From Minisyncoccota bacterium (GTDB lineage Bacteria > Patescibacteriota > Minisyncoccia > 2-02-FULL-40-12 > IGHO2-12-FULL-4): a DNA stretch of 64,000 nucleotides. The translations under genes were made by a program, and so were the position numbers. The stretch is from assembly GCA_036517795.1 (NCBI GenBank), contig DATDTF010000011.1, positions 9,772-73,771 on the forward strand. Direction: 5' to 3'. Below the pieces are notes generated by a model, which was not told the DNA's origin, made no database searches, and saw only the letters and a program-made list of their open reading frames with translations. Shown here piece after piece: positions 4,318 to 52,795 of this stretch; positions within the stretch are counted from its first letter, which is position 1, and every line of letters starts with the position of its first letter.

Positions 4318-5067
4318 ATGAGAGCTTTGAGAATTTGGTTAGGTTTTTTATTGGGATTTCTGATTGGGGTGGTTTTTTTTACCTCAATCGGCTTGGCCCA
4401 GGACGAACTATCCAGGGTCATTAATAGCAATGTCCGGCTCATCGAGCGGAATCATGTCCGTGGGGACGTTGCCAATGCTCGGGCCGGAATCCACAATTTC
4501 ATGTACCATAACCAGTACGGTTATGGTTACGAAAACGACGGCTACTTCTATGGAACCGACCAGTACGGTCGGGGAAACCGTGGGAGGACCCGCATCAGTC
4601 CCATTGAAGTTGGGATTGGTGGAGCCATAATCGGCGGAACCGTCGGCGGATGGAAAGGCGCCGCTATTGGTGGCGTCAGTGGTTATTTCGGGACGAAGGC
4701 CGTAAAAGTCATCGTCAACCACAAAAGAAATAAGAAAGCCGAAAAAGAAGCCGAGGCTATGGCCACCCAAGCAGAGGCGGAAGCTCAAGCCATGCTTGAG
4801 AAAAAGTTTTTCTGGAACGACTTTGAGTCTGTATCCGTCGGGGTTTTCTATCAAGATAACTCCGGCTCACAGTACAAAAAGGTCGGTCCAGGACAACGTG
4901 TTGAGTTGTTCGTTCTGCCCGGTACCGAGATTGGAGTCATGGCCGAGAACATGACAACTCGGGAGGGACGAAATATTAACCTGGAGCTTCGATACGGAAA
5001 TGGTAAACAGAAGCTCCCTGCCAACTCCGGGTGGAGAGTATTCAACCCGGAGACAGGAGGCTATTAG
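4318..5067 (+). CDS. secreted/membrane glycine-zipper protein
   Basis: Signal peptide. GxxxG-rich stretch (GIGGAIIGGTVGGWKGAAIGGVSGYFG) typical of glycine-zipper 2TM domains. Confidence 0.4.
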   Translation: MRALRIWLGFLLGFLIGVVFFTSIGLAQDELSRVINSNVRLIERNHVRGDVANARAGIHNFMYHNQYGYGYENDGYFYGTDQYGRGNRGRTRISPIEVGIGGAIIGGTVGGWKGAAIGGVSGYFGTKAVKVIVNHKRNKKAEKEAEAMATQAEAEAQAMLEKKFFWNDFESVSVGVFYQDNSGSQYKKVGPGQRVELFVLPGTEIGVMAENMTTREGRNINLELRYGNGKQKLPANSGWRVFNPETGGY

Positions 5068-5426
5068 TGAAAGCAAATGTGAAGTGGCAACAGGGGGTAC
5101 TACGACCCTCTACGCCGATCCGAAGAAAAGAATCATTAACATCGACCAGTTGGTTTACATTTCTTCACTGGATGTTGGGACTGGGGGGAATTGCCCTCAT
5201 GGCTTGGATCTTCTTCGGAGGATTCAAGCTGGGGGAGCATTCTTCCGCCACCCCCATCCCAGTAAAAATTGAGGTACCGGGGCTAGAAAAAACTGCTACA
5301 GCGTTGGAGGCTGTAGCGGGGAAGTTGAAAGAAACTCCAACAACCCCATCAGCTTCGGGCGAAGTGGAAGAGGCTGGAGTAAAGCCTATTCCCAAGCCCA
5401 AAAGCTTATGGGAGTTGAATCCCTAG
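5067..5426 (+). CDS. small membrane protein (probable GTG start overlapping upstream stop, TAGTG)
   Basis: AGGAGG RBS at 5055-5060 and an in-frame GTG at 5067. One TM segment (WFTFLHWMLGLGGIALMAWIFFGG). The ORF track's ATG at 5031 lies inside the upstream gene. Confidence 0.3.
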   Translation: MKANVKWQQGVLRPSTPIRRKESLTSTSWFTFLHWMLGLGGIALMAWIFFGGFKLGEHSSATPIPVKIEVPGLEKTATALEAVAGKLKETPTTPSASGEVEEAGVKPIPKPKSLWELNP

Positions 5427-5456: not shown

Positions 5457-5485
5457 CACCCTGTCTTAAAAAGACAGGGTTTTTC
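5457..5485 (+). terminator. rho-independent terminator
   Basis: ACCCTGTCTT-AAA-AAGACAGGGT hairpin followed by TTTTT. Confidence 0.6.
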
Positions 5486-5499
5486 ATTGATTGAAAGAT

Positions 5500-5530
5500 A
5501 ATCAATCCAAGGGCAGCCCTTGGATTGATT
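5500..5530. repeat. REP-like perfect palindrome (15 bp arms, AATCAATCCAAGGGC / GCCCTTGGATTGATT) upstream of the transposase
   Basis: Read directly from the sequence. It shares the CCAAGGGC/GCCCTTGG core with the two palindromes at 5713 and 6210. Confidence 0.7.
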
Positions 5531-5555
5531 GGTGTTTTGTTTTATACTTATTGTC

Positions 5556-6260
5556 ATGGAACGTAAAATTATCTTTTCACCAGGAGAGTACTATCATGTT
5601 TATAATCGTGGTGTTGAAAAACGTAAAATTTTTCTTGAGGATAGAGATTATAATCGTTTTTTAAAAATGCTTTTTTTGGCAAATGGGTCTAACCCAATTG
5701 TTTTTAAAACTGTCCAAGGGCTGCCCTTGGATAAACTTGAGCCAGGAGAAAGAGTGGTTGCTATTGGTGCTTTTGTTCTAATGCCCAACCATTTTCATAT
5801 TCTTGTAAAAGAAAGGGTGGCAGGTGGTTTAACAAACTTTATGCTGAAACTTACCACAGGATATGCTATGTATTTCAATAAAAAATATGAGAGAGTTGGT
5901 TCATTATTCCAGAGTAGGTTTAAGGCGGAACACGTTGACGATGACGACTATCTAAAATATTTATTTTCGTATATACATTTGAATCCAATTAAAATTATTG
6001 AGTCGTCTTGGAAAGAAACAGGGATAACGAACATTAAAAAAGCAGAAGTATTCCTCAATAACTACCGATATTCTAGTTACCCTGATTATGTAGCAGGGTA
6101 TAGGCCAGAAAAAAAGATTCTTAACCTGAAAGAGTTTCCAAATTATTTTGAAAATAAACATATTTTCGCCAACTTTCATAAGGAATGGTTGGTTTTAAAA
6201 GCCAACTATCATCAACTATCCAAGGGCTGCCCTTGGATAGTTGATGATTATAAAAAATAA
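5556..6260 (+). CDS. IS200/IS605-family (Y1 HUH) transposase, REP-associated tyrosine transposase (RayT)-like
   Basis: HUH motif MPNHFHILV. N-terminal GEYYHVYNRG. Catalytic-Tyr region FNKKYERVGSLFQSRF. Start trimmed to MERKII. Flanked by, and containing, REP-like hairpins. Confidence 0.7.
   Translation: MERKIIFSPGEYYHVYNRGVEKRKIFLEDRDYNRFLKMLFLANGSNPIVFKTVQGLPLDKLEPGERVVAIGAFVLMPNHFHILVKERVAGGLTNFMLKLTTGYAMYFNKKYERVGSLFQSRFKAEHVDDDDYLKYLFSYIHLNPIKIIESSWKETGITNIKKAEVFLNNYRYSSYPDYVAGYRPEKKILNLKEFPNYFENKHIFANFHKEWLVLKANYHQLSKGCPWIVDDYKK
5713..5731. repeat. REP-like palindrome inside the transposase CDS (TCCAAGGGC t GCCCTTGGA)
   Basis: Same core as the flanking palindromes. It encodes QGLPLD. 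Confidence 0.6.
6210..6246. repeat. REP-like palindrome (18 bp arms) at the transposase 3' end
   Basis: CATCAACTATCCAAGGGC t GCCCTTGGATAGTTGATG. It encodes the C-terminal LSKGCPWIVDD. Confidence 0.7.
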
Positions 6261-6710
6261 ATGCAATTTCTATCAAAAAGCTCAAAACAAACACAAAAAT
6301 TGGCAGAAAATTTGGCTAAGGAAAGTGTTAAAAAATACTTTCAAAAAAAAGGATCCTTGATAGTTGGTTTGGAAGGTGAGCTCGGTGCGGGAAAAACTAC
6401 TTTCGTGAAAGGTTTCGCCAAAGGCCTGGGTCTAAAAAATAAAATTTCCAGCCCGACTTTTGTTTTAATGAAATCCTATAACTTAAAACTTGTAACCTAT
6501 AACAATCTTTACCACATTGACGCCTATAGGCTCAAAGACCACAAAGATTTAATTAAACTGGGTATAAAAGAAATTTTAAATGACCCAAAAAATTTAGTCT
6601 TAATTGAATGGTCTGACAGAGTAAAAAAAATACTGCCAAAAAATTATCTGAAGATTCACATAGACCACATAGACGAGATGACCAGAAAGATCTTAATTAG
6701 GACCTTATAA
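6261..6710 (+). CDS. tsaE: tRNA threonylcarbamoyladenosine biosynthesis ATPase TsaE (YjeE)
   Basis: About 150 aa. P-loop GELGAGKTTFVKGFAKGLG, characteristic of TsaE. Confidence 0.65.
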   Translation: MQFLSKSSKQTQKLAENLAKESVKKYFQKKGSLIVGLEGELGAGKTTFVKGFAKGLGLKNKISSPTFVLMKSYNLKLVTYNNLYHIDAYRLKDHKDLIKLGIKEILNDPKNLVLIEWSDRVKKILPKNYLKIHIDHIDEMTRKILIRTL

Positions 6711-24436: not shown

Positions 24437-24523
24437 TGGTGCCGGTGGTGGGAGTCGGACCCACAATCCCTTACGGGCGACGCATCTTAAGTGCGTTGCG
24501 TATGCCAATTCCGCCACACCGGC
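24437..24523 (-). tRNA. tRNA-Leu(UAA), type II with long variable arm
   Basis: GCCGGTG acceptor. D-arm GGCGGAATTGG. Anticodon loop CTTAAGA. Long variable arm. T-arm GGGTCCGACTCCC. Confidence 0.75.
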
Positions 24524-24528
24524 ATTAG

Positions 24529-25023
24529 TTATATAAAGATCTTTTTAGTGTTTTTATCTCTGTTTTTTCCTCTGTGCGTTAACTGCAAGCTATGACAATT
24601 TGGGCAGAGTATCCTTAGGTTTTCTAAACGATTATCGTGCCTATCACCATTAATATGATCTAGTTCTAACGGGATCCTATTATCAACTGACTTTTTTGAC
24701 CATCCACACTCTTCACAACTCATACTTTTAAGATTAACCTGAAAAAGTCTCTTTTTTAACTTAAAGCTTTGATAGGTACTGTTTCTGATTAATATTTTCT
24801 CCAACGGTATTAGTGGTTTTCCGAGTCCACGTAGACCCTTATTCCAAGCCTTGCCTTTAAAATGTTTCGTACTGAAGTTGTTTTCTTCAATATATTTCTT
24901 TAGCTGTTCATAATTACCACCAGCTTCCCTCAACTTCAACTTTGCCAAAACTTGCCTATAGCTAGGAGATTTTTTGACTGCTTCTCGCAGTTGCTCTGTC
25001 GTCCAAGTTCTCTTTTTGCCCAT
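24529..25023 (-). CDS. HNH endonuclease (free-standing, homing-endonuclease-like)
   Basis: INGDRHDNRLENLRILCPNCH and CEECGW zinc-ribbon/HNH motifs. Sits between rfbA and tRNA-Leu. Confidence 0.6.
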   Translation of the reverse strand: MGKKRTWTTEQLREAVKKSPSYRQVLAKLKLREAGGNYEQLKKYIEENNFSTKHFKGKAWNKGLRGLGKPLIPLEKILIRNSTYQSFKLKKRLFQVNLKSMSCEECGWSKKSVDNRIPLELDHINGDRHDNRLENLRILCPNCHSLQLTHRGKNRDKNTKKIFI

Positions 25024-25116
25024 AACTGAATTGTAACAAACGGAAGACGCATGGCAAAGACAAGTTATTAACGTATGCCAATTAAAATACTTTTAACTAA
25101 AGAAAGGTTATCTTCT

Positions 25117-25821
25117 TTACCTTTTCTTCTTAGCCCATTCTATAGCTTGAGCCAAAGAATGAAAAGTGCCGGCATCAACCCAAAAGCCTTTTACAAATTC
25201 TGCTTTCATTTTTTTGTCGTTAATGTAAGCATTATTCACATCGGTAATTTCTAACTCACCACGAACCGACGGTTTAAGCGTGCGGATAATATCAAACACT
25301 TTTGAATCATACTGATATAGACCGGTAACAGCAAAGGGGGAGAGCGCTTTTTTGGGCTTTTCAATTACAGCCGAGACCCGTTTACCTTTCAATGTTGCCA
25401 CACCGAATCTCTCCGGATCAGGAACTTTTTTTAAAAATATTCTTGCTCCTTCCTTAAAAGCTTTTATCGCTTCGGGAAAACTCTCTTCAAAAATGTTGTC
25501 ACCCAAGATTACGGTCATCAAATCTTCGCCGACAAATTCTTCGGCCAACAAAAGTGCGTGGGCAATTCCTATGGCTTCTTCTTGAACTTTGTAAGTAAAA
25601 TTCGCACCAAAGTCCCTACCTGAACCAAGATATTCTATAAAATCCCCCGAATGTTCACGGCCCGAAACAATAAGAATGTCTTTGATGCCGGAGCGAAGCA
25701 AAGTATTAAGAGGATACTCAATCAAAGCCCGATCAAAAACGGGCAACAAATTTTTATTTATCAGGTTGGTTAATGGCCTCAAGCGTATACCATTACCGCC
25801 TGCCAAGATGACACCCTTCAT
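25117..25821 (-). CDS. rfbA: glucose-1-phosphate thymidylyltransferase
   Basis: MKGVILAGGNGIRLRPLT nucleotidyltransferase signature. Start trimmed because the longer ORF overlaps tRNA-Cys. Confidence 0.85.
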   Translation of the reverse strand: MKGVILAGGNGIRLRPLTNLINKNLLPVFDRALIEYPLNTLLRSGIKDILIVSGREHSGDFIEYLGSGRDFGANFTYKVQEEAIGIAHALLLAEEFVGEDLMTVILGDNIFEESFPEAIKAFKEGARIFLKKVPDPERFGVATLKGKRVSAVIEKPKKALSPFAVTGLYQYDSKVFDIIRTLKPSVRGELEITDVNNAYINDKKMKAEFVKGFWVDAGTFHSLAQAIEWAKKKR

Positions 25822-25823
25822 AG

Positions 25824-25896
25824 AGGCGCCGATGGGACTTGCACCCACGAATCGCGGTTTTGCAGACCGCTGCGTTAGCTACTTCGCCACGGCGCC
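25824..25896 (-). tRNA. tRNA-Cys(GCA)
   Basis: GGCGCCG acceptor. Anticodon loop CTGCAAA. T-arm GGGTGCAAGTCCC. Confidence 0.7.
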
Positions 25897-25924
25897 ATCT
25901 TAATTTTTAACTTTTTCAATTAAA

Positions 25925-25990
25925 GACTGTCTAACTTCGACGGTCAAGATAACCTCGGTTTTCAACTTCGGAAGCTAAGAGGTTTCTTTT
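25925..25990. repeat. dispersed repeat (family 2 copy)
   Basis: tgtctaacttcgacggtcaag..cggttttcaacttcggaagctaagaggtttc is near-identical to part of 22558..22730. Confidence 0.6.
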
Positions 25991-26319
25991 ATTCGACGGG
26001 TTACGTTTTCTATTTTCGCCGCCCTTTCTTCTGTTTCGTCCAGGACAAAAAACAATTTGGGTACCGGACGCATTTGCAGTTTCTTGTTAAGTGTTTGTTG
26101 AAAAAAATATATGCTTCTGTTGATACTCTCCAGAGCCTGCCGGCCGGCGTCCAGAGGAAAAACAGAAACATAAACCCTAACGTGGTTTAAATCTTCAGAA
26201 ACAACCGCCCTGGTAACTGTAACCAGAGCTTCAACATCAAGATCAAGTTCGCGATGCAAAATCTTGCCCACTTCATCTCTAATCAAATCATTTATTTTTT
26301 CCCGACGATGAGAGTCCAT
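25975..26319 (-). CDS. rbfA: ribosome-binding factor A
   Basis: 114 aa immediately downstream of infB. RbfA-like N-terminus. Confidence 0.7.
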   Translation of the reverse strand: MDSHRREKINDLIRDEVGKILHRELDLDVEALVTVTRAVVSEDLNHVRVYVSVFPLDAGRQALESINRSIYFFQQTLNKKLQMRPVPKLFFVLDETEERAAKIENVTRRIKETS

Positions 26320-26321
26320 GA

Positions 26322-27893
26322 TTATAGAGATTTTTTAATTCTTTCTTCTTCATAAACCTCCAGGATGTCTCCTTCTTTAACAAACATATTTGGAGCGATT
26401 GGCTGGCCGAAATCAACTCTTAAACCGGCTTCCAAACCTTCTGCAACTTCTTCCACATCCGCTTTTTGCTGTTGAAGCTGTCCGAGTTTTCCTTTCGTTA
26501 TTACATTACTGTTTCTAGTCACCTCAATCAATGCGCCTCTCTTGATTTTACCAGAAATCACTTTTCCTCCCACAACCTGATTTTTAGGGTCCTTTTTGAA
26601 TAAGGCCAACACCTTAAGCCTACCCAAGGAAATTCTATTAATTTCCGGATCTAAAAGGTCGGACATCTTTCTTTTTACCTCCTCCACCAGCTCATAAATT
26701 ATGTCAAAAGATTCTACCACTATCCCATCCCTTTCCGCCATTTGACGGAGAGAACTACTGGCCGGAACATGAAATCCCACCACCATAGACTTTGTCGCTA
26801 TGGCTTTTTTGATGTCACCTTCCGAGATGTTGCCAATGCCAAAATCCACAACTTTGTATCCGACTTCTTCTGATTTTATTGTTCTCAAAACTTGGTCAAT
26901 TGCCTCAAGAGAGCTTGAGACGTCAGCTTTAACTATTAAATTCAGACTTTTATTTTTACTCTTTTCCGGCCCGCTTGCTTGAATAAAAATTACCGGCCGG
27001 CCAAGAATTGAATTCTCTTTAGCTAACTTCAAAGCTTCTTCTCTGGAATCACTTCTCTTCACAACTTCGCCCAAAACCGGAGAGCTGGCCCAACCCAAAA
27101 CTACCGCCGGCTGTGACGGACCAGCCTTAGTCAAATTCCTACCTAAGAAATCCGCCATTGATTTAATTCTAACTGCTTCCGGGCCGGTTATAATCCAGTC
27201 ATTTGTATGAAAGAACCCGCTTTTGACTAAAATGGTAGCCACATGACCGCGTCGATTATCCAAATAGGAATCAATTATAACTCCCGTAGCAGAAGCATCA
27301 TCTGATTTAAGCTCTTCCAATTCGGCTACTAAAAGAATCATCTCCAACAAAGAATCTATACCTTGACCGGTTTTCGCTGAAACTTCTATTACCGGCGTCT
27401 TGCCGCCCCACTCTTCTATGAAAACATTGTTTTCTGAAAGTTCCTGCTTAACCTTCTGCACATTAGCGTTTTCTTTGTCTACTTTATTTATGGCGACAAT
27501 AAAAGGCGTCTTAGTCTCTTCAATAATTTTGATGGCTTCCTTTGTCTGAGGTTTTACACCCTCATCGGCGGCCACAACTAAAATTGCCACGTCAGCCACA
27601 TTAGCACCTCTGGAGCGTATGGCTGAAAAAGCCTCATGACCGGGAGTGTCCAGAAAAGTTATGGTGCGCAAGCTCGGCAGTGCAATATCGGAGGTTGGTT
27701 GGTTGTCTTTAGTTGACACTTCTACCTGATAAGCACCGATGTGCTGGGTAATCCCACCTGCTTCTCCTTCGGCAATTTTGGTTTTACGAATGTAATCCAA
27801 AATTTTAGTCTTACCATGGTCAACATGTCCCAAAACAACCACAATTGGTGGTCTGGTTTGAAAATTTACCTTTTTTTCCTGTGTTTCTGCCAT
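26322..27893 (-). CDS. infB: translation initiation factor IF-2 (short form)
   Basis: G-domain motifs [16 protein letters not shown] and NKVD. Beta-barrel domains. Carries an in-frame repeat insertion before DTPGH. Confidence 0.9.
   Translation of the reverse strand: [523 protein letters not shown]
27669..27702. repeat. MITE 5'-end fragment in frame within infB
   Basis: Minus strand reads caaccaacctccgatattgcactgccgagct and encodes [11 protein letters not shown], absent from canonical IF-2 between GAYxVE and ITFLDTPGH. Confidence 0.65.
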
Positions 27894-27949
27894 ATTAGAA
27901 GTTCAGAAAATATAGCATTTTAAAGTGTTTTGGGCAAATAAAAAAACCG

Positions 27950-28010
27950 TCCCTTAGGGACGGTGTCGGTTGCCTGATACCGGCAACTTTTTATAAGTTT
28001 AGCTACTGGC
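27950..28010 (-). terminator. tandem hairpin terminator downstream of the PBP gene
   Basis: On the minus strand, GTTGCCGGTATCAGGCAAC then CCGTCCCTAAGGGACGG followed by a T7 run. Confidence 0.5.
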
Positions 28011-28076
28011 TGTTATGGTCCAATCCAGAAAAGCCTCCTGAAGCATATTTACCGTCAACAAATTTGCTCACAAGCA

Positions 28077-30071
28077 TTAATTTGCATTGGGGTTTATTAA
28101 TTTCTGAACCTTTTCTTCCACTGACGTAGAAAAAATTTCTTTAGGTTTATCTTTGTATATTTCTTCTATAATTCGCCTGCATATTGGAGCGGCAAGCAAA
28201 CCTCCGGTCTGTCTGGCACCAATGCTTTTGGGCGTGTCATAGCCAAGCCTGACTCCAACCGTATAACCACGAGCACCGGGGGTAAAACCAAAAAACAAAA
28301 CGTCGCGGGATTCGTTTGTTGTTCCCGTCTTGCCGGCAACTTTCTGTTCTATGCCCTTGAAAGTAAGTTTGGCTGTTCCTATTTCCGTAACCGCTCTCAT
28401 CAAAGCCGTCATATCTTCTGCAACCTCGGGAGAAAGAACATTTTTTGCTGCCGGCTCTTTCTGATAAAGAATTTTGCCTTCAGAGTCGGCAATTTCGTAA
28501 ACAATAACCGGTTCGTAGTAAGAACCCTGGTTTGGAAAAACAGAAAAAGCCGCTGTAAGCTCCAGCAGACCCACCGACGAAGCACCGATAGCAGTCGGCA
28601 AATAAGGATCAAGTTTGCTTTTTATACCCATCTCATGAGCCGTTGCTATGACATCTTTGATACCGATTCTGCTGGCTAGAAATATTGTCGCAACATTTCT
28701 AGAAAGCACTAAACCCCGCCAAAGGTCAATAAAACCCATAAAATCCGGGTGTGACTTTTCACGAAAGTTTTTAGGACTCCACCATTTAAGGACTTTGCCA
28801 TGAAAACTTATTTTCCCAGGCAAGTGGATTGGACAGTCACAGATTTTGTCATAGAAACTCCAACCTTCTTTCAAGGCGGTAGCATAAGTAAAAATTTTAA
28901 AAGCCGAACCCGGTTGCCGAATGGCAGACTGTTGGACAGCGCGGTTGTACTTGGTTTCGGCAAAATCATGCCCACCGACAACAGCCACTATTTTGCCGGA
29001 AAAATTCTCAATCACCACTACCGCACCCTCGAGTTTTTCTTTGTCGTTTTTCCAATCCGAGTTTAATTTTGCCAAATGTTCCTTCAGAACTTCGGTTACA
29101 GTTTTCTGTATGCGGCTGTCTATGGTAGTTTTAACTTTCAAGCCGCCATTGTGCCATATTTGGTCCCGGTTGTAGCCTTTTTCCAAGAGTGTTCTTCTCG
29201 CAAAATCTTTGGCATAGTCAAAACTCGGTTCTGTTTTGGAAATGTTCAAGTTAATTGCCTCAAGTTTGAAACGTTCATATTCTTCTTTTGTTATAAATTT
29301 GTTTTCGGCCATCAGCATCAAAACCCGGTTTCTTCTTTCAACAGCCGCTTTTTCCTGATTTATAGGCGAAAACCTAGCGGGGGACTTGATTAACGCTGCC
29401 AAAACTGCCGCTTCAGGGACAATTAAGTCCTTCAACTCTTTGCCAAAATAGTAGCGGCTGGCTTCAACTACGCCGAAACGGCCGTGGCCTAAATAGACAT
29501 AGTTAACATAGGTTTCAAAAATTTCTTCTTTGCTATAATGCTTCTCCAACTGCACAGCCAAACGGGCTTCTTTCCACTTTCTTTTATATCCCATTTCTCT
29601 GTTTTTGAATTCGGGCACCTCATCTTCGTAGAGCAAGCGGGTTAGCTGTTGAGTGACGGTGCTTGCTCCCGAAACCGTCCTTCTGGCCAGCGTGTTGTGA
29701 ACGAAAGCCCTGACTATAGAGATTGGGTCAATGCCGAAGTGATAAAAACTGTAAAAAAACCTTTCATCTTCAGTCGCAAGTACGGCGTTTTTGACAAGCG
29801 GAGGAATATCTTTGAATTTTACCGGATCACGGTTTTCATAAAAGAATCTGCCGGCAATTTTTTCGTCTTTGGAATAGATATAGGAAGAACGGTTAAGTTT
29901 CAGGTCAGAAAGCTTTTTGACATTCGGCAAATCGCTTGTTTTAAGATACACGTACAGGAAAAAAACGCCGCCAGCGGCTATTGCCAAGACGACTATCACG
30001 CAAAACATCAAAAACAAGTAAAGGGCAATTTTCTTAAGTAATTCCACCTGCTGCCTCTTTTCAAAGTTCAA
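28077..30071 (-). CDS. class A penicillin-binding protein (transglycosylase/transpeptidase)
   Basis: N-terminal TM. GT51 motifs (ATEDERFFYS..GIDPISIVRA). Transpeptidase SAFK and KTGT motifs. Confidence 0.8.
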   Translation of the reverse strand: MNFEKRQQVELLKKIALYLFLMFCVIVVLAIAAGGVFFLYVYLKTSDLPNVKKLSDLKLNRSSYIYSKDEKIAGRFFYENRDPVKFKDIPPLVKNAVLATEDERFFYSFYHFGIDPISIVRAFVHNTLARRTVSGASTVTQQLTRLLYEDEVPEFKNREMGYKRKWKEARLAVQLEKHYSKEEIFETYVNYVYLGHGRFGVVEASRYYFGKELKDLIVPEAAVLAALIKSPARFSPINQEKAAVERRNRVLMLMAENKFITKEEYERFKLEAINLNISKTEPSFDYAKDFARRTLLEKGYNRDQIWHNGGLKVKTTIDSRIQKTVTEVLKEHLAKLNSDWKNDKEKLEGAVVVIENFSGKIVAVVGGHDFAETKYNRAVQQSAIRQPGSAFKIFTYATALKEGWSFYDKICDCPIHLPGKISFHGKVLKWWSPKNFREKSHPDFMGFIDLWRGLVLSRNVATIFLASRIGIKDVIATAHEMGIKSKLDPYLPTAIGASSVGLLELTAAFSVFPNQGSYYEPVIVYEIADSEGKILYQKEPAAKNVLSPEVAEDMTALMRAVTEIGTAKLTFKGIEQKVAGKTGTTNESRDVLFFGFTPGARGYTVGVRLGYDTPKSIGARQTGGLLAAPICRRIIEEIYKDKPKEIFSTSVEEKVQKLINPNAN

Positions 30072-30108
30072 TTTTTACTGTTGAATAAGTTATCACTACT
30101 GGAGGTCT

Positions 30109-31233
30109 TTGACAATGGTTGAAAAAAGAGCCGATATTGCTGTAATTGGCGCGGGGGTTGTGGGCTGCGCAATCGCCAGACAGCTGTCTATAACTAGACC
30201 TAGCACAAAAATTGTTGTTTTGGAAAAACTAAGGAGCGTTGGTCTGGAGACCAGCAGTTTAAACAGCGGTGTCTTACACTCCGGCATTCATCAAAATCCA
30301 AACTTTCTAAAGTCAAAACTAGCCAGAGAAGGCAGTAAGATGGCGGCCTATTACATGAAAATCCGCTCCCTGCCGGTGATGCACTGCGGGATGCTGATAG
30401 TGGTTTCTCAAGAGTCTCTAAGGCATGGGCTTTATAAAGAATGGCTAGATTTATGGCAACTGATAAAAAAGGGTAAAGAGCAAAAAATTAACTTAAAATT
30501 TTTGACACCACTTGGAATTAAAAAAATTGAGCCAAACATCAGAGCTCTCGGCGGTATTTTTATTTCCAACGTTTGGGTTATCGACCCGACAACTTTAGTT
30601 AATTCACTTTATAAAGAGGCTCAAGCAAATGGCGTCAGTTTCTTTTTTGAAAGTCCGGTTATTTCAGCAGACAAAACCAATGGCACCTATCTGCTTTCAA
30701 CGCCCAACAAAGAGTTCTCTGCAAAAAAAGTAGTCAATGCGGCGGGTCTTTACGCCGACGAGGTTGCCCGAATGGCCGGTTTTGCGGAATATAAAATCTA
30801 CCCTTGGCGAGGTGAATATTATGAAGTAATAGGAGAAAAGAAAAAATTGGTCAGCCGTTTGGTTTATCCGGCACTGCCCGCCAATTATCCCGGAAAGGGA
30901 ATTCACTTTAGTCCCAGAGTTGACGGCAGATTATTCGTAGGCCCGAATGCCCGACCAGTTCCCAGAAAAAATTTTTACATAGAATGCAAAACTTCTGTTG
31001 CAGAATTTTTAAGGGCTGTCCAGCGCTTCTGTCCGCAAATTAAAGAAGAAGATTTGGTTTGGGCCTATTCTGGCATCCGACCCAAACTGACTAACGCCGC
31101 CGAAGAATCGGACTTTATAATAAAGTTAGACAATCAGAACCCCCACTGGTTGAATCTTGTCGGCGTTGAATCACCCGGACTTTCTTCTGCTATGGCCATT
31201 GCTGAATATGTAGAAAAGCTTTTCAAAAGCTAA
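30109..31233 (+). CDS. FAD-dependent oxidoreductase (DAO family, L-2-hydroxyglutarate/glycerol-3-phosphate oxidase-like)
   Basis: GAGVVGCAIARQL dinucleotide-binding motif at the N-terminus. 374 aa. Confidence 0.55.
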   Translation: MTMVEKRADIAVIGAGVVGCAIARQLSITRPSTKIVVLEKLRSVGLETSSLNSGVLHSGIHQNPNFLKSKLAREGSKMAAYYMKIRSLPVMHCGMLIVVSQESLRHGLYKEWLDLWQLIKKGKEQKINLKFLTPLGIKKIEPNIRALGGIFISNVWVIDPTTLVNSLYKEAQANGVSFFFESPVISADKTNGTYLLSTPNKEFSAKKVVNAAGLYADEVARMAGFAEYKIYPWRGEYYEVIGEKKKLVSRLVYPALPANYPGKGIHFSPRVDGRLFVGPNARPVPRKNFYIECKTSVAEFLRAVQRFCPQIKEEDLVWAYSGIRPKLTNAAEESDFIIKLDNQNPHWLNLVGVESPGLSSAMAIAEYVEKLFKS

Positions 31234-31433
31234 CCCACTTAACAGTGGGTTTTTTATAACTGGCGGAGGGTAGAGGAGTCTCCTTCGCCTCTCGTCGCGC
31301 CGTCGCGCTCCTCGGGCTAGGCACCATCTCGCGGTGACCGCTGGTGCGGTCACATCGCTCCGATGTTCGACTCCCACCACCTCTATTCCAAGACGGATTT
31401 AAACGTGCCTAAAGGCACCTTCAAATCCGTATG

Positions 31434-31515
31434 CGGAGGGTAGAGGAGTCGAACCTCTAAGGGCTTGCGCCCGGCGGTTTTCGAAACCGCTGCCATACCA
31501 TTAGGCGAACCCTCC
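31434..31515 (-). tRNA. tRNA-Ser(CGA), type II
   Basis: GGAGGGT acceptor. Anticodon loop TTCGAAA. 15 nt variable arm. T-arm AGAGGTTCGACTCCTCT. Hairpin terminator at 31383-31425. Confidence 0.75.
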
Positions 31516-31566
31516 AGACTTAGTAAATTAGCATTTTTAAGGTCTTTTTTCAACAAAAAAGCGGAT

Positions 31567-32262
31567 TTATTTCCGCTCATTTATACACTCCTCAAAATCC
31601 CCAAAAAAAGTCGGTACCGGAAAAACCATAACATGAAGACAGTTGTTATAAAACTCGTCTCTGACATGGATAAGGTTTAGATTCTGTAATTCCAGCAGAT
31701 ATTCCTTTAGCCAGCATAGTTCATCTCTTATTAAGTCCTTGGTGCTAATGTCAAAAGTTGCACCGGTAAGATGGCTGGACTGACGGTCAAGATTTTCCTC
31801 GTCCCAAATCGCATTTGGATTCCTTCTGGCCAAAGCTTTCTGATATTTTCTATGCCTAACAAGGCCCGTAATTTTGACTTTCTTTTTACTTCTCTTCTTG
31901 ATCTTCTGGGTATGTTCGTAAAAATCCTTGCTAAGTTGATTGATAAAAACCAAAGTCCAGGGACTTATGAAATGGGTTCTTTTATCCAGACTTGGGTCAA
32001 CAAAAAAATACTGCGTAGATGACGGAACGGAAACCAATTTCTTTAACCGCACGGCTTCTTTAACCTCTGACTCGTTCTCAAACCGCTGAAGTTTCCAGAG
32101 ATCAACCACAAAATTCTGCTTCTCCAACGAGTATTTGCCGAAAAAAGCTTCTTTAAAATCTTTGGCAGAATACTTTGAATTACAGCAACAATAAACCCTT
32201 GCTTCAGTATGTGCTGCTGAACAAAAGAAAAAAAACAAAAAACTTAAAAGAACTTTTGCCAT
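31567..32262 (-). CDS. hypothetical secreted protein (231 aa)
   Basis: Signal peptide MAKVLLSFLFFFFCSAAHTEA. No recognised domain. Confidence 0.35.
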   Translation of the reverse strand: MAKVLLSFLFFFFCSAAHTEARVYCCCNSKYSAKDFKEAFFGKYSLEKQNFVVDLWKLQRFENESEVKEAVRLKKLVSVPSSTQYFFVDPSLDKRTHFISPWTLVFINQLSKDFYEHTQKIKKRSKKKVKITGLVRHRKYQKALARRNPNAIWDEENLDRQSSHLTGATFDISTKDLIRDELCWLKEYLLELQNLNLIHVRDEFYNNCLHVMVFPVPTFFGDFEECINERK

Positions 32263-32295
32263 TGATGCGCTCCGATTTGTAAAGTTTCACCTTTG

Positions 32296-32366
32296 TGGAC
32301 CTACCGGGATTCGAACCCGGGACTAGCCCATGCCATGGGCTCGTGTTACCCCTATACCATAGGCCC
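32296..32366 (-). tRNA. tRNA-Ala(GGC) (probable)
   Basis: GGGCCTA acceptor with G3:U70. Anticodon loop ATGGCAT. T-arm CCGGGTTCGAATCCCGG. The D-stem has one mismatch. Confidence 0.5.
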
Positions 32367-33050
32367 TCTATAGGTTGCATTTAGTACTCTAATTATCGCG
32401 TCAATTTCGTTATATATTCCAGCATTAAGCAAATCAATTTTACAAACTCCTGGATATTTTTTCTTTTTAGTAGGCTTACCGATTGTTCGCTTATCAACTC
32501 TAGCTTTATAAAACTTGTTCTGCGGTATATTAGTAACCTTAGACCAGAAATGCTCTAGTTTTTTAATATTCTGATCAGCCCTACATTGTAGCGTACACCT
32601 AAAACTATCCTCGTAAAATTTAAAGCAAAATCTAAGCAAAACCAGAAAGAGGCTTATTATCTTAGGGTCTGAGTTGGCAAAAGATAAAGACCCTCTCTTG
32701 CCTTTTGATCCTTCGGCTGCATAAAGCAAGGAAAGGGCAATTTTGGCTACATCTTTGTTTTTTAATTTATCTAATAGATATCTATTTTTTTGAAAAAGAG
32801 AACTTAGATATTTTTCTCTTTTGGCCTTATTAACTGCAACCGCAATCAACCTACCACGTTCACCAGACTCTTTAACAATTTTGCATATTTTGTCCTTATA
32901 GTAATCTGGAAGAGATACATTTCTACACCAATAAGATAGCGTACTTTTAGGAATGTCGGACTTTAAAATTGCGCGAATCTCGCTAAAGGTCTTCCCATTC
33001 TTTCTTTCTTTAATAACCCTTTCCTGCAGGTAACTGTGGTTTGAAAGCAT
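32352..33050 (-). CDS. LAGLIDADG-type homing endonuclease-like protein (putative)
   Basis: LSLLYAAEGS matches the LAGLIDADGS consensus position by position. HTH-like N-terminus. The 3' end overlaps the tRNA-Ala 5' end by 15 nt. Confidence 0.35.
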   Translation of the reverse strand: MLSNHSYLQERVIKERKNGKTFSEIRAILKSDIPKSTLSYWCRNVSLPDYYKDKICKIVKESGERGRLIAVAVNKAKREKYLSSLFQKNRYLLDKLKNKDVAKIALSLLYAAEGSKGKRGSLSFANSDPKIISLFLVLLRFCFKFYEDSFRCTLQCRADQNIKKLEHFWSKVTNIPQNKFYKARVDKRTIGKPTKKKKYPGVCKIDLLNAGIYNEIDAIIRVLNATYRGPMV

Positions 33051-33089
33051 GTTTTAATTGTACCACAGAGCTTGTCCACGAGCAAAAAA

Positions 33090-33130
33090 GTAAGTACGCT
33101 CTGACGTTGACTGCTCCGCCGCTGAGCTAC
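33090..33130 (-). pseudogene. tRNA 5'-half fragment (GGGCCTG-TA-GCTCAGCGGCGGAGC), no matching 3' half found
   Basis: Canonical acceptor and D-arm, then the sequence diverges. Lies just upstream of the LAGLIDADG-like ORF. Confidence 0.4.
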
Positions 33131-33140
33131 AGGCCCTTTT

Positions 33141-33530
33141 TTAATAAGTGGAGAATCTTTTTTCTTTAAATTTTTTGTCGCTTTGCTTTTTGCTCTCCTT
33201 GTCATACCAATCTATAATATTTAAAGCGTCTGCGTAGTTTTCATCCATCAATTCTGCCGGTACATCCACCCCTTTAAGCACCTTTTTAATCGCCGCAAAA
33301 ACTTTTTCTCTCTCGAATTTATGGTCTTCGGAAGCAACCATACCAAAACTCGGATTGTTTTTGCGCAACTCTGTCAAGCGTCCTGCCTTGTAGCGTCTAA
33401 AAATATTAATGACATCATTCAGTTCCGAGTCACTCAACTCTTTCAGGCCTCTTGAAAAATCCGACTTAATTTCAACTCTTGGCCCGGAAAACTTATCTTC
33501 TCTTTTTTCTGTTTGCATATTAGTTAACAT
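33141..33530 (-). CDS. hypothetical protein (129 aa)
   Basis: ORF only. Charged, no recognised motif. Confidence 0.25.
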   Translation of the reverse strand: MLTNMQTEKREDKFSGPRVEIKSDFSRGLKELSDSELNDVINIFRRYKAGRLTELRKNNPSFGMVASEDHKFEREKVFAAIKKVLKGVDVPAELMDENYADALNIIDWYDKESKKQSDKKFKEKRFSTY

Positions 33531-33645
33531 TTAAAATTTCAATTGAAAAATATCACAAAAGTGATAGAATGGCAACCGACGGCGTGAAAACTCGGCAAAG
33601 AAAAATATCGGCAGATAAGAGATTTGTGGATTTCGTCAGCTTACT

Positions 33646-33717
33646 GCCCTCGTAGTTCAATGGACAGAACAAGACACTCCTAGCGTCTAGATCCATGTTC
33701 GACTCATGGCGAGGGCA
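33646..33717 (+). tRNA. tRNA-Arg(CCU)
   Basis: GCCCTCG acceptor. D-arm TAGTTCAATGGA. Anticodon loop CTCCTAG. T-arm CCATGTTCGACTCATGG. Confidence 0.7.
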
Positions 33718-33726
33718 CAAAGATAA

Positions 33727-35199
33727 ATGAAACTACCCGAAGAAGTAAAATTGATTTTAGAAAAGCTAACTGAAAACAATTTTCAGGCTTTTGTTGTTGG
33801 TGGCTGTGTGCGCGATTTATTGATGGGCAAAGAACCAAAAGACTGGGACGTAACAACAAATGCCAAGCCCGAAGAAATACAAAAAATTTTTCCTGACAGT
33901 TTTTATGAAAACGAGTTTGGTACGGTAGGCGTAAAGGTTTCAAGGAAAGTAAGCCCTCCGAATGCCGATATTGCAAATTCTCTTCAAGTAGTTGAGGTTA
34001 CTACCTACAGAACCGAGTCCAAATACACCGACAAAAGACATCCCGACAAAATTGAATTTGCCGACAAGCTTGAGGACGATTTAAAAAGAAGAGACTTCAC
34101 TGTTAATGCACTGGCCATGGACAGTGAGGGAAATATTATTGACCTTTTTAATGGGCAGAATGATTTGAAAAAAAAGATTGTTAAGGCCGTCGGCAATGCC
34201 GAAGAAAGGTTCTCTGAAGACGCTTTGCGCATGATAAGAGCAATAAGACTGGCTACGGTATTGGGCTTTGAGATTAAGACTGAAACACTGAAAGCCATCA
34301 AAGCAAAGCACTTACTAATGCAAATAATTTCAAAAGAGAGAATCAGGGATGAATTTGTAAAAATTATAAATTCTCCAGAGGCAAAAGCCGGCATGGAGTT
34401 GTTAAGAGAGACTGAACTAATGAGATATGTTGTTCCGGAAATCCTTGAAGGAGTCGGGGTGGAACAGAACCTCCACCATATTTATACTGTCTGGGAACAC
34501 AACGTCCGTGCTCTGCAATATGCCTGCGATAAAAACTATTCCACCGAAGTAAGGCTGGCTTCTTTACTGCATGATATCGGCAAACCCAGAGCAAAAAGAG
34601 GGGAGGGTAGAAATTCCACTTTTTATGGACACGAAGTTGTGGGAGCCAGAATGACTGCTCAAATTCTTGATCGTTTGAAATTGTCCAAAAACCAGACAGA
34701 TAAAATCACTAAATTGGTCAGATGGCATCTTTTCTATTACAATGTCGGCGAAGTTACCGAAAGCTCGGTTAGACGCTTGGTTGCTAATATAGGCAAGGAA
34801 AACGTTGAAGATTTGATTAAAGTCAGGGAGGCCGACCGTATTGGTTCCGGTACACCCAAGGCCAAGCCCTATAAGCTCCGCCATTTACAGTTTGTAATTG
34901 ATAAAGTGGCCCGAGATCCAATATCTCCAAAGATGCTTAAAGTTAACGGCAACGATATTATGAAACTCTTAGATATGGTTCCCGGACCAAAAATCGGTCT
35001 GATTATGTCCGCATTAATGGACGAAATACTTGACGACCCGACCAAAAATACCAAAGATTATTTAGAAAAAAGGGTAGAGGAACTAAGCAAACTTCCAGAC
35101 AAAGAACTTCTGAACTTGGGTCAGCAGGGAAAATCCAAGCTGGCTGAAGAAGAAGAAAAAGAAGTGGAGAAAATTAAGCAAAAGCATTTTGTAAGTTAA
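33727..35199 (+). CDS. cca: CCA-adding tRNA nucleotidyltransferase with HD domain
   Basis: FVVGGCVRDLLMG...DWDV head-domain motifs. HDIGKP HD motif. Embedded in a tRNA cluster. Confidence 0.85.
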   Translation: MKLPEEVKLILEKLTENNFQAFVVGGCVRDLLMGKEPKDWDVTTNAKPEEIQKIFPDSFYENEFGTVGVKVSRKVSPPNADIANSLQVVEVTTYRTESKYTDKRHPDKIEFADKLEDDLKRRDFTVNALAMDSEGNIIDLFNGQNDLKKKIVKAVGNAEERFSEDALRMIRAIRLATVLGFEIKTETLKAIKAKHLLMQIISKERIRDEFVKIINSPEAKAGMELLRETELMRYVVPEILEGVGVEQNLHHIYTVWEHNVRALQYACDKNYSTEVRLASLLHDIGKPRAKRGEGRNSTFYGHEVVGARMTAQILDRLKLSKNQTDKITKLVRWHLFYYNVGEVTESSVRRLVANIGKENVEDLIKVREADRIGSGTPKAKPYKLRHLQFVIDKVARDPISPKMLKVNGNDIMKLLDMVPGPKIGLIMSALMDEILDDPTKNTKDYLEKRVEELSKLPDKELLNLGQQGKSKLAEEEEKEVEKIKQKHFVS

Positions 35200-35204
35200 A
35201 TTTT

Positions 35205-35276
35205 CGGGCTGTAGTGTACCGGCAACACGGGTCGTTCGGGTCGATCAGACAGAGGGTTCGATTCCCTCCAGCCCGA
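35205..35276 (+). tRNA. tRNA-Pro(CGG)
   Basis: C1:G72 acceptor (CGGGCTG/CAGCCCG), typical of tRNA-Pro. Anticodon loop TTCGGGT. T-arm GAGGGTTCGATTCCCTC. Confidence 0.7.
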
Positions 35277-35368
35277 CAACATGAGTTTATATTTATCAAG
35301 AATAACTAGGCTTGGGCCTATAGCACAGTGGTAATGCGCCGCATTTTCACCCCGTTAGAAATGCCTCT

Positions 35369-35443
35369 GGGCCAGTAGCTCAGCGGCAGAGCACTGCATT
35401 CGCATTGCAGGGGTCGGGGGTTCAATTCCCCCCTGGTCCACCA
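35369..35443 (+). tRNA. tRNA-Ala(CGC) with encoded CCA
   Basis: GGGCCAG acceptor with G3:U70. D-arm TAGCTCAGCGGCAGAGCA. Anticodon loop TTCGCAT. T-arm GGGGGTTCAATTCCCCC. Flanked by a 15 bp inverted repeat. Confidence 0.8.
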
Positions 35444-35610
35444 GCATTTCTAACGGGGCGCAATTGCAATAGAGATGGGGGATTCTCCCTAATTTTTTAA
35501 CGCTCGTTATGCCTTCGGCATAAACACTCGCTAAAATTAGGAGTTAAAGTGAAGTAGTTCATTTTAACTGCCCCTAGGTCCACCAAGAGAAATTAAAGAT
35601 TAAAAAATCA

Positions 35611-35636
35611 CGCGAGAATGCGTGATTTTTCTAAAG
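35611..35636. terminator. bidirectional hairpin terminator
   Basis: AAAAATCACGC-GAGAA-TGCGTGATTTTT lies between the tRNA cluster (+) and nadV (-). Confidence 0.55.
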
Positions 35637-35642
35637 AACTAT

Positions 35643-37034
35643 TTAAACTCGGGCTCTTTTGCGAATTTCTTCAAAGGTCTGGTCAACAAGAAGGACGCCA
35701 TTGCGAAAAACTTCTGTGAGCTGGTTGGGCAAAACATTACCGTCCAACCTTACTGTCTTAAATGTACCATCAACATCTCTAATCAAGGCCAATCGGCCGC
35801 TTTTAGATTTTTTGTCTGGGTCAGTAACTGGGTTTTTAGAAACATCACGCCACTGATCACCAACACAAACCGCACTACACTTAAAAGCAAATTTCTGTGA
35901 GTCCCGATTGACTTTCTGAAGAAGACCACCACCAGAACCGAACGTTATATTATCTGCAGACCAATTTCTGTCTTTAACTGCTTCCAAAACGGAGCCAATC
36001 ATATCGTGGTCAATTCCATCTCCTTGAATAACTCTAACGTGAGGATCCAGTATACGATAACCTTTTTTATTCAGAGAAGAACCAAAAGCTTCACCGAGAA
36101 TATCCAGAATCTCCGGCACGATGTCTGGTGGATTACCACTATCTGGCCTGATAACCACAACACCATTTCTGGACAAAACCTTATCACGTAGTTGCTTGCC
36201 CCAAATATTTCGACAAGCGTTAAAAACATCGTAGCTGTCACTTACCACCGCCACTAAGCCTTCGGGAAACTGGGTAAGCATATTGTCATAAGCATAAACT
36301 TCGTTCTCCCGACCCCAGGAAGTAATAGTGCTATGTTCGGCAGCCGGAACTGAAAAACCGGCCATTTCTTCACCATAATATTCTTCCAGAAGTTCTATTG
36401 CCGCTAAGGTATCCGTCCCCTTGAAGTTAACCAGATGGCTGGCACCTCCAATCGCAGCCGACTCAACACTAGTGCTTCCCCTAAAACCAAAATCATGAAG
36501 CTTAAAGTCAATCAGGTTTGGGTCACCAGTATCTTCTAGGTACTTAAGGATTAGCTTTCTGGACATGCGACTATTTGTACAGACAGTTGAAGGATACCAG
36601 GACTGAACAAGCACTGTCTCAAAGTAACTTGTCAACCACCGGCAGTTTGGATCGGTACTTTCAACAGTCATAAGAACATTGGATACGGGGACAGTTGAAC
36701 CCTCAAGAACCGCCCGGATTGAAAGTGGCGGAGTGCCACCATATTCATTAAGAATATATTTCCAGCCGCGTTCATAGAAAATAGCATTGTTGTTAAAGTG
36801 TCTTGAAAAAAAAGTCGAAGCTTTTTCTAGATTATCTTTAGTAACCCTAGCATTAACAAAGTGCTTTTTCAGAATATATTGAAGGCCAAAGAAAGTAACC
36901 TCCGGCCAGCGCCCGCCACGACTCTCAAAGTAAGAGTGGACGTTGGTAACATTGTGGGGGTACTGAAAAGCATGCGAAACTTTATAACTATCCGTCAGTC
37001 CAATTATGCCAAGCCTTTTAAAGGTGCTTCTCAT
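35643..37034 (-). CDS. nadV: nicotinamide phosphoribosyltransferase
   Basis: 463 aa. N-terminal GLTDSYKVSHAFQYP matches the NAMPT/NadV signature. Confidence 0.7.
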   Translation of the reverse strand: MRSTFKRLGIIGLTDSYKVSHAFQYPHNVTNVHSYFESRGGRWPEVTFFGLQYILKKHFVNARVTKDNLEKASTFFSRHFNNNAIFYERGWKYILNEYGGTPPLSIRAVLEGSTVPVSNVLMTVESTDPNCRWLTSYFETVLVQSWYPSTVCTNSRMSRKLILKYLEDTGDPNLIDFKLHDFGFRGSTSVESAAIGGASHLVNFKGTDTLAAIELLEEYYGEEMAGFSVPAAEHSTITSWGRENEVYAYDNMLTQFPEGLVAVVSDSYDVFNACRNIWGKQLRDKVLSRNGVVVIRPDSGNPPDIVPEILDILGEAFGSSLNKKGYRILDPHVRVIQGDGIDHDMIGSVLEAVKDRNWSADNITFGSGGGLLQKVNRDSQKFAFKCSAVCVGDQWRDVSKNPVTDPDKKSKSGRLALIRDVDGTFKTVRLDGNVLPNQLTEVFRNGVLLVDQTFEEIRKRARV

Positions 37035-37959: not shown

Positions 37960-38044
37960 AACAATTTATTAAGAAACTCTTGGCCAATGAAGGCCAAGCT
38001 TTAGCGTCTAAAGCCAAAGCTTGAACTTCATTAAGCCTGAAGTT

Positions 38045-38725: not shown

Positions 38726-38857
38726 GATTGTTTGTTAGTGTATTATATACACATACTACTCCCGCTTAAAAAACCTGTCAAGCCCAGTAGTCAACTTTAT
38801 ATGTCTGTTGACTTTAATTAGTGTTAGTAATACACTATCTATATTAGTCCATCACCT

Positions 38858-39703: not shown

Positions 39704-39706
39704 TTT

Positions 39707-39778
39707 GTCCCCGTAGCTCAGCGGAAGAGCGCTTCCCTCCGAAGGAAGAGGCCGACCGTTCAAATCGGTCCGGGGATA
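39707..39778 (+). tRNA. tRNA-Arg(CCG)
   Basis: D-arm TAGCTCAGCGGAAGAGC. Anticodon loop CTCCGAA. T-arm GACCGTTCAAATCGGTC. Acceptor has G1:U72. Confidence 0.65.
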
Positions 39779-52660: not shown

Positions 52661-52686
52661 TAAAGTAGAGTCAGTGGTAAGAAACT

Positions 52687-52795
52687 CAATTTAATTCCGA
52701 TATTGCTCTGCCGAGCTTTAGCAAGTGTCAGCTGGGATAAAGTCAAAAGGGACTTTGCCAAAGGCGGAGTGTGTCAAAGACAAGAACAATATCGG
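52687..52795. repeat. MITE-like element, full-length copy (intergenic)
   Basis: ccgatattgctctgccgagctttagc...aaaagggactttgccaaaggcgg...caatatcggcattgggacg. About 80% identical to the 41868 copy. Confidence 0.7.

Follow-up and report, generated by a model that had tools for sequence, protein, structure and literature searches.

A Y1/HUH transposase gene with matching hairpins at both ends and inside its coding sequence in a patescibacterial genome

The locus described here is a Y1/HUH tyrosine-transposase gene of a Minisyncoccota bacterium (Patescibacteriota; assembly GCA_036517795.1), together with the palindromes that surround and interrupt it. The gene lies near one end of a 64,000-nucleotide stretch (contig DATDTF010000011.1, positions 9,772 to 73,771), hereafter the window, whose coordinates are used throughout. 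Three perfect palindromes sharing one core accompany it: the first upstream of the start codon, the second in frame within the coding sequence, and the third running over the last codons. The features of the locus are as follows.

5500-5530, no strand: left terminal palindrome (hairpin), perfect, 15-bp arms, centre A; left boundary of the cassette
5520-5548, plus strand: putative promoter, read from the sequence, with a −35-like TTGGAT, a 17-nt spacer, and a −10 TATACT
5556-6260, plus strand: Y1/HUH tyrosine-transposase gene, 234 amino acids plus a stop codon (6258-6260)
5713-5731, no strand: internal in-frame palindrome, perfect, 9-bp arms, centre T at 5722
5790-5798, plus strand: HUH motif H79-F80-H81, within the Y1 gene
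5970-5987, plus strand: catalytic-tyrosine motif Y139-IHLNP (residues 139-144), of the class-2 form Y-x-x-x-N-P
Residues S173-S174 of the Y1 protein: "SS" motif
6208-6248, no strand: right terminal palindrome (hairpin), perfect, 20-bp arms, centre T; right boundary of the cassette
6261-6710, plus strand: tsaE (Pfam TsaE, 127.7 bits), context outside the cassette

The encoded protein is a Y1/HUH tyrosine transposase of the RayT/TIRYT branch. It matches Pfam Y1_Tnp (PF01797) over residues 68-141 with 32.1 bits against a gathering threshold of 23 (E 1.4e-07), and all 21 aligned homologues have H79, H81, Y139, N143, and P144. A sequence search of solved structures was marginal only (ISDra2 TnpA at E 0.8-0.9), and a fold search was therefore needed. 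The AlphaFold model (mean predicted local distance difference test, pLDDT, of 79) retrieves from the PDB, as the top Foldseek match, the E. coli RayT with a repetitive extragenic palindromic (REP) hairpin (4er8_A; E 5.9e-05, probability 1.00), and the next fold matches are the IS608, ISDra2, and IS200 TnpA structures. A first-pass annotation, made without database searches, had proposed an IS200/RayT-type transposase; Pfam and the fold bear out a Y1/HUH enzyme of the RayT branch, but the protein misses the threshold of the NCBIfam RayT equivalog (NF047646, REP_Tyr_transpos), with 41.8 bits against a cut-off of 80. Related proteins form more than 7,600 clusters, of which the named ones come from Parcubacteria/Patescibacteria. 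The motif set of the protein (NHFH, LFQ with its FQ, YIHLNP, a Y-S-S-Y tail, 234 amino acids), compared by eye and not with the authors' hidden Markov models, fits TnpA-Y1 subclass 2.1 (TIRYT, Bertels group 1). The signature of that subclass comprises NH[YF]H, FQ, Y[IV]HLNP, an SS tail motif, and a median length of 238 amino acids (PMC6006769, Table 1).

The core CCAAGGGCNGCCCTTGG occurs exactly three times in the window, at 5507, 5714, and 6220, always at the Y1 gene, where the first-pass annotation had recognized them; 0.01 copies are expected in dinucleotide-preserving shuffles. No further copy was found elsewhere in the 64 kb, even with 2 mismatches. Folded as single-stranded DNA, the left, internal, and right palindromes reach −14.2, −7.6, and −20.0 kcal/mol (z −5.8, −3.5, and −10.4, respectively), and they account for 3 of the 12 perfect hairpins with a stem of at least 9 bp in the whole window. 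Their initial measurements needed partial correction: the left palindrome does have 15-bp arms, with its 3′ end 25 nt, not 27 bp, before the ATG at 5556, while the right one, originally given 18-bp arms and the last 12 codons, has 20-bp arms and occupies codons 218-231 of 234. These codons encode the tail Y218-D231. The last ~17 residues of the protein are not conserved, most homologues covering 91-93% of the query, and the pLDDT of the tail is below 50; the 3′ hairpin is thus DNA that the open reading frame (ORF) happens to run through. The hairpin feet in the window read AATC... and ATCA... and lack the GT[AG]G guide tetranucleotide. A search of the region against PHROGs gave no match.

The anatomy recurs in relatives. 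From species-representative genomes, 80 loci were fetched, and 83 non-redundant loci were analysed (L numbers below). The three closest homologues, 71-73% identical, each have palindromes ~50 nt before the ATG, at codons 53-59, and at the stop codon, and within each of these loci the palindrome cores change together; L003, for instance, carries ATACAAGGACCGTCCTTGTAT upstream and ACAAGGACCGTCCTTG internally, the latter coding Q-G-P-S-L. Upstream and downstream hairpins match (longest shared stretch at least 12 nt) in 61 of the 83 loci, compared with 2% of random locus pairs, and they lie at about −50 from the ATG and at about −50 to +80 nt of the stop codon. Between loci the hairpin sequences are highly diverse (TACAAGGTT, CTAGGTCTTGCCTAG, CCAGGAAGGCC, TCTCCGCTAGGA, and others). 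The apex of most is xxAGG-loop-CCTxx, and the stems are perfect Watson-Crick palindromes without G-U pairs. Loop orientation flips among close relatives and also within a cassette, from one end to the other: the two loops are reverse-complementary in 30 loci and the same in 23. Chance or codon usage as the source of the palindromes is ruled out by the three copies against 0.01 expected and by the family-wide covariation within loci, and the data support palindromes that are cognate hairpins tied to the gene.

Hairpins of this kind rarely stray from the gene: at more than 300 nt from it, 9 cognate copies were found in 273 kb of the other loci's flanks, a number far above chance, and tsaE loci without a Y1 gene contained none. 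The initial description of the palindromes as REPs, in the sense of a dispersed extragenic family, is rejected for the window, where the core is confined to the gene and the GT[AG]G foot is missing, and those tsaE loci have no copy either. As a separate observation, three loci have 3-4 cognate hairpins upstream of the gene, spaced ~35-210 nt (L009 2782-2972, L077 2867-2976, and L059 2674-2993); these arrays are local amplifications reminiscent of REP clusters.

The internal palindrome, whose 9-bp arms and coding position had been correctly described, spans codons V53-D59 (V-Q-G-L-P-L-D), and its centre T is the second base of codon L56. Since the axis of symmetry falls within a codon, each codon on one side is the reverse complement of its counterpart on the other, CAA-GGG-CTG-CCC-TTG giving Q-G-L-P-L. 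The codon pairs are CAA/TTG (Q/L), GAA/TTC (E/F), GGN/NCC (G with P, T, S, or A), and AGG/CCT (R/P). The pattern shows in the proteins alone: of 121 sequences, 96 have Q/L at positions 54/58, and 88 have G-P, G-T, G-S, or R-P at positions 55/57. Non-conservative changes (P to S, T, or A) are tolerated with pairing preserved, and inversion of the loop alters the central codon, which is cga (R) in L023 and tcg (S) in L031, in hairpins that are otherwise identical. DNA structure thus dictates part of the sequence of the Y1 protein.

The relation of the internal copy to the flanks was measured with the cognate 15-mer of each locus, CAAGGGCWGCCCTTG in the window, allowing no more than 2 mismatches. 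It is present in the loop-coding segment of 21 of the 61 paired-flank loci but in 1 of 244 control segments from the same genes, and the distribution of mismatches is bimodal (0-2 or at least 5, with nothing at 3-4). With single-flank-hairpin loci counted too, 29 of the 83 loci have the internal copy, each time at the same aligned position and in frame, across proteins only ~50% identical. These 29 loci are scattered over the protein tree and are missing from one large clade with CTAGG-type hairpins. In 23 of the 25 loci with an internal xxAGG..CCTxx hairpin, its apical 5 nt are those of the locus's own flank hairpin, while agreement between loci is 4.3%; the internal sequence is replaced in step with the flanks, as in the GAAGGCC (L059), CGAGG (L038), and ATAGG (L017) types. 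The first-pass annotation had suggested asking of orthologues whether this palindrome is conserved as protein or as DNA: it is present or absent as a cognate DNA hairpin that covaries with its own flanks. It is kept near-identical to the terminal copies by concerted evolution and, having one fixed in-frame position family-wide, is not a fresh insertion or a nesting event.

How this concerted evolution comes about is where a serious rival, although a rather improbable one, enters. It retains the same cassette and takes the internal palindrome to be inert, an in-frame REP-like copy that is tolerated in a flexible surface loop, passively homogenised by template switching or gene conversion only, and not used by the enzyme. 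The segment does lie between helix A and the HUH strand in a loop that is rich in indels and varies more in length than any other in the protein, and 54 of the 83 loci, including the entire CTAGG-type clade, do without the copy, which is therefore dispensable. The orientation of the copy varies, the loop flips point to hairpin-mediated template switching, and there is precedent for in-frame REPs in RayT genes (PMC6006769) and in other genes (PMC3733652). Active maintenance is argued for by the bimodal distribution devoid of 3-4-mismatch intermediates. Inertness is also difficult to square with a position and frame held fixed at ~50% protein identity while the sequence is swapped together with the flanks, and with non-conservative residues being accepted where pairing is kept.

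The terminal hairpins coincide with the limits of homology. The cassettes of L071 and L081 are 81% identical in unrelated flanks. Their homology sets in at the outer foot of the left hairpin, to within 1-2 nt, and stops where the right hairpin has its outer foot; the two loci have the same hairpin stems, with one loop flipped. L086, found by a TsaE scan, has a TsaE 82% identical and homologues of both upstream genes, with no Y1 gene, no hairpin, and only 32 nt between the upstream terminator and tsaE; as an empty site it supports mobility in part. In L084 (2729-4100), an intact Y1 cassette with long inverted terminal repeats that include the hairpin AAGGTTcAACCTT lies beside two remnants of another Y1 gene, an N-terminal piece with a stop codon (residues 1-91) and a C-terminal piece in reverse orientation (residues 132-212), which looks like nesting plus rearrangement. 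Two diverged Y1 copies are found in single genomes (L058/L066, with ~75% DNA identity, and L049/L069), and one copy is found in the window.

Compared with each other, the window and L003 show a mosaic pattern, with the left break falling at the end of the cassette. Their flanks are 90-95% identical, and identity is 55-75% from ~5480, just before the left hairpin, to ~5940, in the middle of the gene. The left and internal hairpins and the 5′ half of the gene are present in L003 as another allele. The 3′ hairpin of L003 has decayed (CCAGGGTTTACCCTTGG) and has lost its match to the new hairpins upstream of and inside the gene. A recombination break at the internal hairpin was considered for this mosaic and rejected, as the right break lies mid-gene and only the left one is at a hairpin. 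The mobilisation or repeated nesting suggested at the outset gains some support from the breaks at hairpin feet, the empty site, and the nested copy in L084; for the internal copy, nesting does not hold.

These boundaries bear on a second alternative, an unlikely one, in which a RayT-like gene has been domesticated and is immobile. Its palindromes would act in double-stranded DNA as operators, insulators, or terminators for the Y1 gene and tsaE, and presence or absence would arise by ordinary deletion and homologous recombination. The retention of the tsaE neighbourhood in relatives, the single copy in 64 kb, the flanks shared by most cassette pairs, the promoter overlapped by the left hairpin, and the terminator-like scores of both terminal hairpins would all suit such a gene, as would the general behaviour of RAYTs as vertically inherited single-copy genes (PMC5581495). 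It is less likely because homology breaks at the hairpin feet, between unrelated flanks in L071/L081. The nested or disrupted copy in L084, the two diverged copies per genome, and the strict conservation of the catalytic HUH and tyrosine residues also speak against it, and terminators need no match to a coding palindrome. The Y1-tsaE arrangement occurs only in the closest relatives (L001-L005), and 0 of 80 more distant genome loci adjoin tsaE; the idea that the gene always neighbours tsaE, which would have pointed to a housekeeping role, was rejected for that reason.

At the left end, TTGGAT (5520-5525) sits in the right arm of the hairpin and TATACT (5543-5548) ends 7 nt upstream of the ATG, which suggests a leaderless or near-leaderless Y1 mRNA and a left hairpin that would overlap the likely −35 box of the gene's own promoter. 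In 59 of 61 related loci, a TAnnnT box comes after the upstream hairpin, in 49 of these at 6-12 nt before the ATG, and the −35 position in such loci falls in the loop or the 3′ arm of the hairpin. A consensus promoter scan made no call, and the −35 hexamer matches at only 3 of 6 positions; the promoter overlap, the leaderless start, and any autoregulation are for this reason inferred. At the right end, the tsaE ATG directly abuts the Y1 stop codon (TAAATG, 6258-6263), so that tsaE has no upstream region of its own, and its transcription may now be supplied by the cassette. In addition, a strong antisense promoter-like site (TTGATA-18-TATAAT, 11/12) lies at 6276-6247 on the minus strand, with its −10 box overlapping the end of the right arm of the 3′ hairpin, and is aimed into that hairpin and the Y1 gene; judged by its consensus match only, it could drive an antisense RNA.

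The transcribed state of the internal and 3′ hairpins raises a third alternative, in which they act as mRNA hairpins in translation, stability, or termination and not as DNA hairpins. The 3′ hairpin is located at the stop codon, just before tsaE, and REPs do act as RNA elements in other bacteria (PMC3733652). Such a role is very improbable because the upstream copy lies upstream of or overlaps the −35 box and hence falls outside the gene's own transcript, because both orientations occur and loops flip freely, which is neutral for DNA but alters an RNA loop, because the perfect stems contain no G-U pairs, and because a search of the region against Rfam matched no family.

The explanation we prefer, with a probability of roughly 0.55, is that 5500-6248 is one ~750-bp mobile cassette, similar in layout to a REPtron or TIRtron and to a minimal IS200, in which the palindromes are the cognate hairpins of the enzyme and the coding copy is kept by concerted evolution. 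The cassette would be ordered as left hairpin, promoter, Y1/HUH gene (subclass 2.1-like), and right hairpin, and the palindromes are most likely the sites that its own enzyme recognizes. If the enzyme works as IS608 TnpA and E. coli RayT do, it would bind the hairpins as a dimer in single-stranded DNA, Y139 would cut at or beside the hairpin feet, and the strands would be rejoined, such that the hairpin-to-hairpin unit is excised, inserted, or exchanged. Binding or extrusion at the left hairpin could throttle transcription and so provide autoregulation. The internal copy may be homogenised because all copies are selected together for binding by one enzyme, through gene conversion templated by the hairpins, or in both ways, and would then be a bound non-terminal site, a decoy or regulator, and not a transposon end. 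A bound regulatory or decoy site is favoured because the internal copy is either near-identical or absent.

Several observations weigh against this explanation. Binding and cleavage are carried over from homologues only, and the autoregulation and the role of the internal copy are likewise conditional. No GT[AG]G guide and no conserved flanking or cleavage motif was seen beside the hairpins by eye in 61 loci, and the relative orientation of the three hairpins is not fixed, which would be odd if strand-specific recognition of single-stranded DNA matters. The 54 loci without the internal copy and the weak promoter signals described above also count against it. L086 is too diverged to prove precise excision. 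The Y1 gene has stayed next to tsaE even in relatives with a TsaE identity of no more than 60-80%, and most pairs of similar cassettes have similar flanks too; movement must therefore be rare.

A bolder extension of the mobile-cassette explanation, possible but tentative, would give the in-frame hairpin a function as the third site that the enzyme recognizes, for autoregulation, as a decoy, or for nicking. Selection on DNA structure would fix the loop as Q/E-G-x-P/T/S/A-L/F, and the hairpin would co-evolve with the terminal hairpins and flip by hairpin-mediated inversion. If so, subclass 2.1 would include a class of hairpin-bounded Y1 cassettes, spread across the Patescibacteria, that has not been described before.

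It is well known that RayT genes can be flanked by cognate palindromes. Units of this kind, in which a tnpA-REP (RayT) gene is flanked by cognate REP hairpins, are called REPtrons and are reportedly linked with the names of Nunvar (in 2010) and Ton-Hoang (in 2012). The present cassette resembles REPtrons (E. coli RayT, 4er8; PMC6006769) in (i) a Y1/HUH enzyme with the class-2 Y-x-x-x-N-P motif and RayT as its best fold, (ii) a gene bracketed by locus-specific cognate palindromes, often inverted, and (iii) low copy number and largely vertical inheritance at short range. Unlike REPtrons, it has no dispersed REPs (none further in 64 kb and ~1 extra copy per 30 kb in the other loci's flanks) and no GT[AG]G foot; its palindromes are perfect, with loops of 1-5 nt, and stand exactly at the unit ends, and its protein of 234 amino acids has FQ instead of W[EQ] and fails the RayT equivalog threshold.

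Subclass 2.1 is reported without nearby REP-like hairpins, with terminal inverted repeats (TIRs) carrying GGGGWSAS, and with a C-terminal helix-turn-helix (HTH) domain (Bac_DnaA_C, HTH_23, HTH_28) (PMC6006769). The TIRs of TIRYT genes lie at fixed distances, may extend into the ORF at its 5′ or 3′ end, and may be self-complementary (Di Nocera 2013, PMC3733652). The present family shares with these TIRtrons the NHFH, FQ, YIHLNP, and SS tail motifs, a length of 234 against 238 amino acids, and matching repeats that flank the gene at fixed distances and can overlap the ORF ends. It differs in its perfect hairpin ends with an xxAGG...CCTxx apex in place of GGGGWSAS TIRs, in its third, coding copy, and in its origin from Patescibacteria, outside the sampling of those studies. 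It also differs at the C terminus, where a domain search of the Y1 protein found no Pfam family besides Y1_Tnp at E <=0.1.

REPs within a transposase ORF had been regarded as unusual in the first-pass annotation, which is partly so: in subclass 2.4, REPs have already been described in frame within the tnpA-REP gene, between HuH and Y (Quentin et al. 2018, PMC6006769). Subclass 2.4 has WQ and YIxNNP motifs and hosts among Cyanobacteria and Bacteroidetes (PMC6006769). Both cases have a cognate palindrome in the transposase ORF, an intact frame, and a peripheral loop. The copy described here is instead N-terminal to HUH (codons 53-59 as against 79-81) at one codon-symmetric site, co-varies with the flank copies, has a loop that flips, and belongs to a protein with FQ and YIHLNP.

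The IS200/IS605 elements (IS200, IS608, ISDra2) have in common with the cassette a unit of ~700-750 bp, a Y1/HUH enzyme, one hairpin per end, a promoter in the left end, and a hairpin-bounded unit of homology. They differ in their Y-x-x-x-Q enzymes of ~150 amino acids, compared with YIHLNP and 234 here, and in hairpins that are imperfect, subterminal, and dissimilar between left and right, which is not so here. They also have many near-identical copies per genome, compared with one copy in the 64 kb covered here and two diverged copies in each of two other genomes, and often a tnpB partner, which was not seen here. HUH initiators with a nick site in their own gene are also familiar from the phiX174 gene A origin and the pT181 repC origin. 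There too, the recognition hairpin or site of an HUH nuclease is embedded in its own coding sequence, with the difference that these sites are rolling-circle replication origins of phages and plasmids. What is new here is the perfect terminal hairpins in a subclass 2.1-like family and the fixed coding copy N-terminal to HUH that tracks the flanks; a literature search found no paper on Y1 transposases in the Candidate Phyla Radiation (CPR) or Patescibacteria.

The surroundings of the cassette were also surveyed. Two hypothetical ORFs without a Pfam match lie upstream (4318-5426), where the GC content is higher than anywhere else at this end of the window (48% versus ~37-42%), and the gene preceding the cassette ends in a clear terminator hairpin at 5458-5480. 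A second repeat family, with the box CCGATATTGCNCTGCCGAGCTTT, is found at 27663-27711 (minus strand), 33584-33615, 41846-41984, 52674-52813, 55978-56102, and 61391-61439, with ~130 nt of similarity in two copies. Its copies are intergenic or just upstream of gene starts, for example before an rsmA/ksgA-like ORF. This is probably the family of miniature inverted-repeat transposable elements (MITEs) to which the first-pass annotation had tied the Y1 hairpins; that tie was rejected, the repeat sharing no sequence similarity with them. Two 36-nt perfect palindromes with 18-bp arms and no loop, also unrelated to the Y1 hairpins, lie at 53901-53936 (AATAAAAACTGGGATTAT|ATAATCCCAGTTTTTATT) and 62765-62800 (TAAATAAATAACCCCCCT|AGGGGGGTTATTTATTTA) and may be bidirectional terminators. 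Eight tRNA genes on both strands are located within ~15 kb (24440-39778).

For genome annotation, the finding means that genes now named only "transposase" or "hypothetical" belong to this family, and that their last ~15 codons are encoded by a hairpin and are not conserved protein. The RayT/TIRYT host range is extended to the reduced genomes of Patescibacteria, with more than 7,600 protein clusters, and a subclass reported as hairpin-less does have cognate terminal hairpins in these bacteria. As the hairpin sequence varies by locus together with the enzyme, the family offers a data set for how Y1/HUH enzymes read hairpins, which is useful for engineering nucleases and ligases specific to single-stranded DNA. 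The in-frame copy is a clean natural example of dual coding, in which DNA secondary structure constrains protein and amino-acid covariation follows reverse-complement codons. The main value of the family lies in this constraint of DNA structure on protein sequence and in the family-wide covariation of the hairpins.

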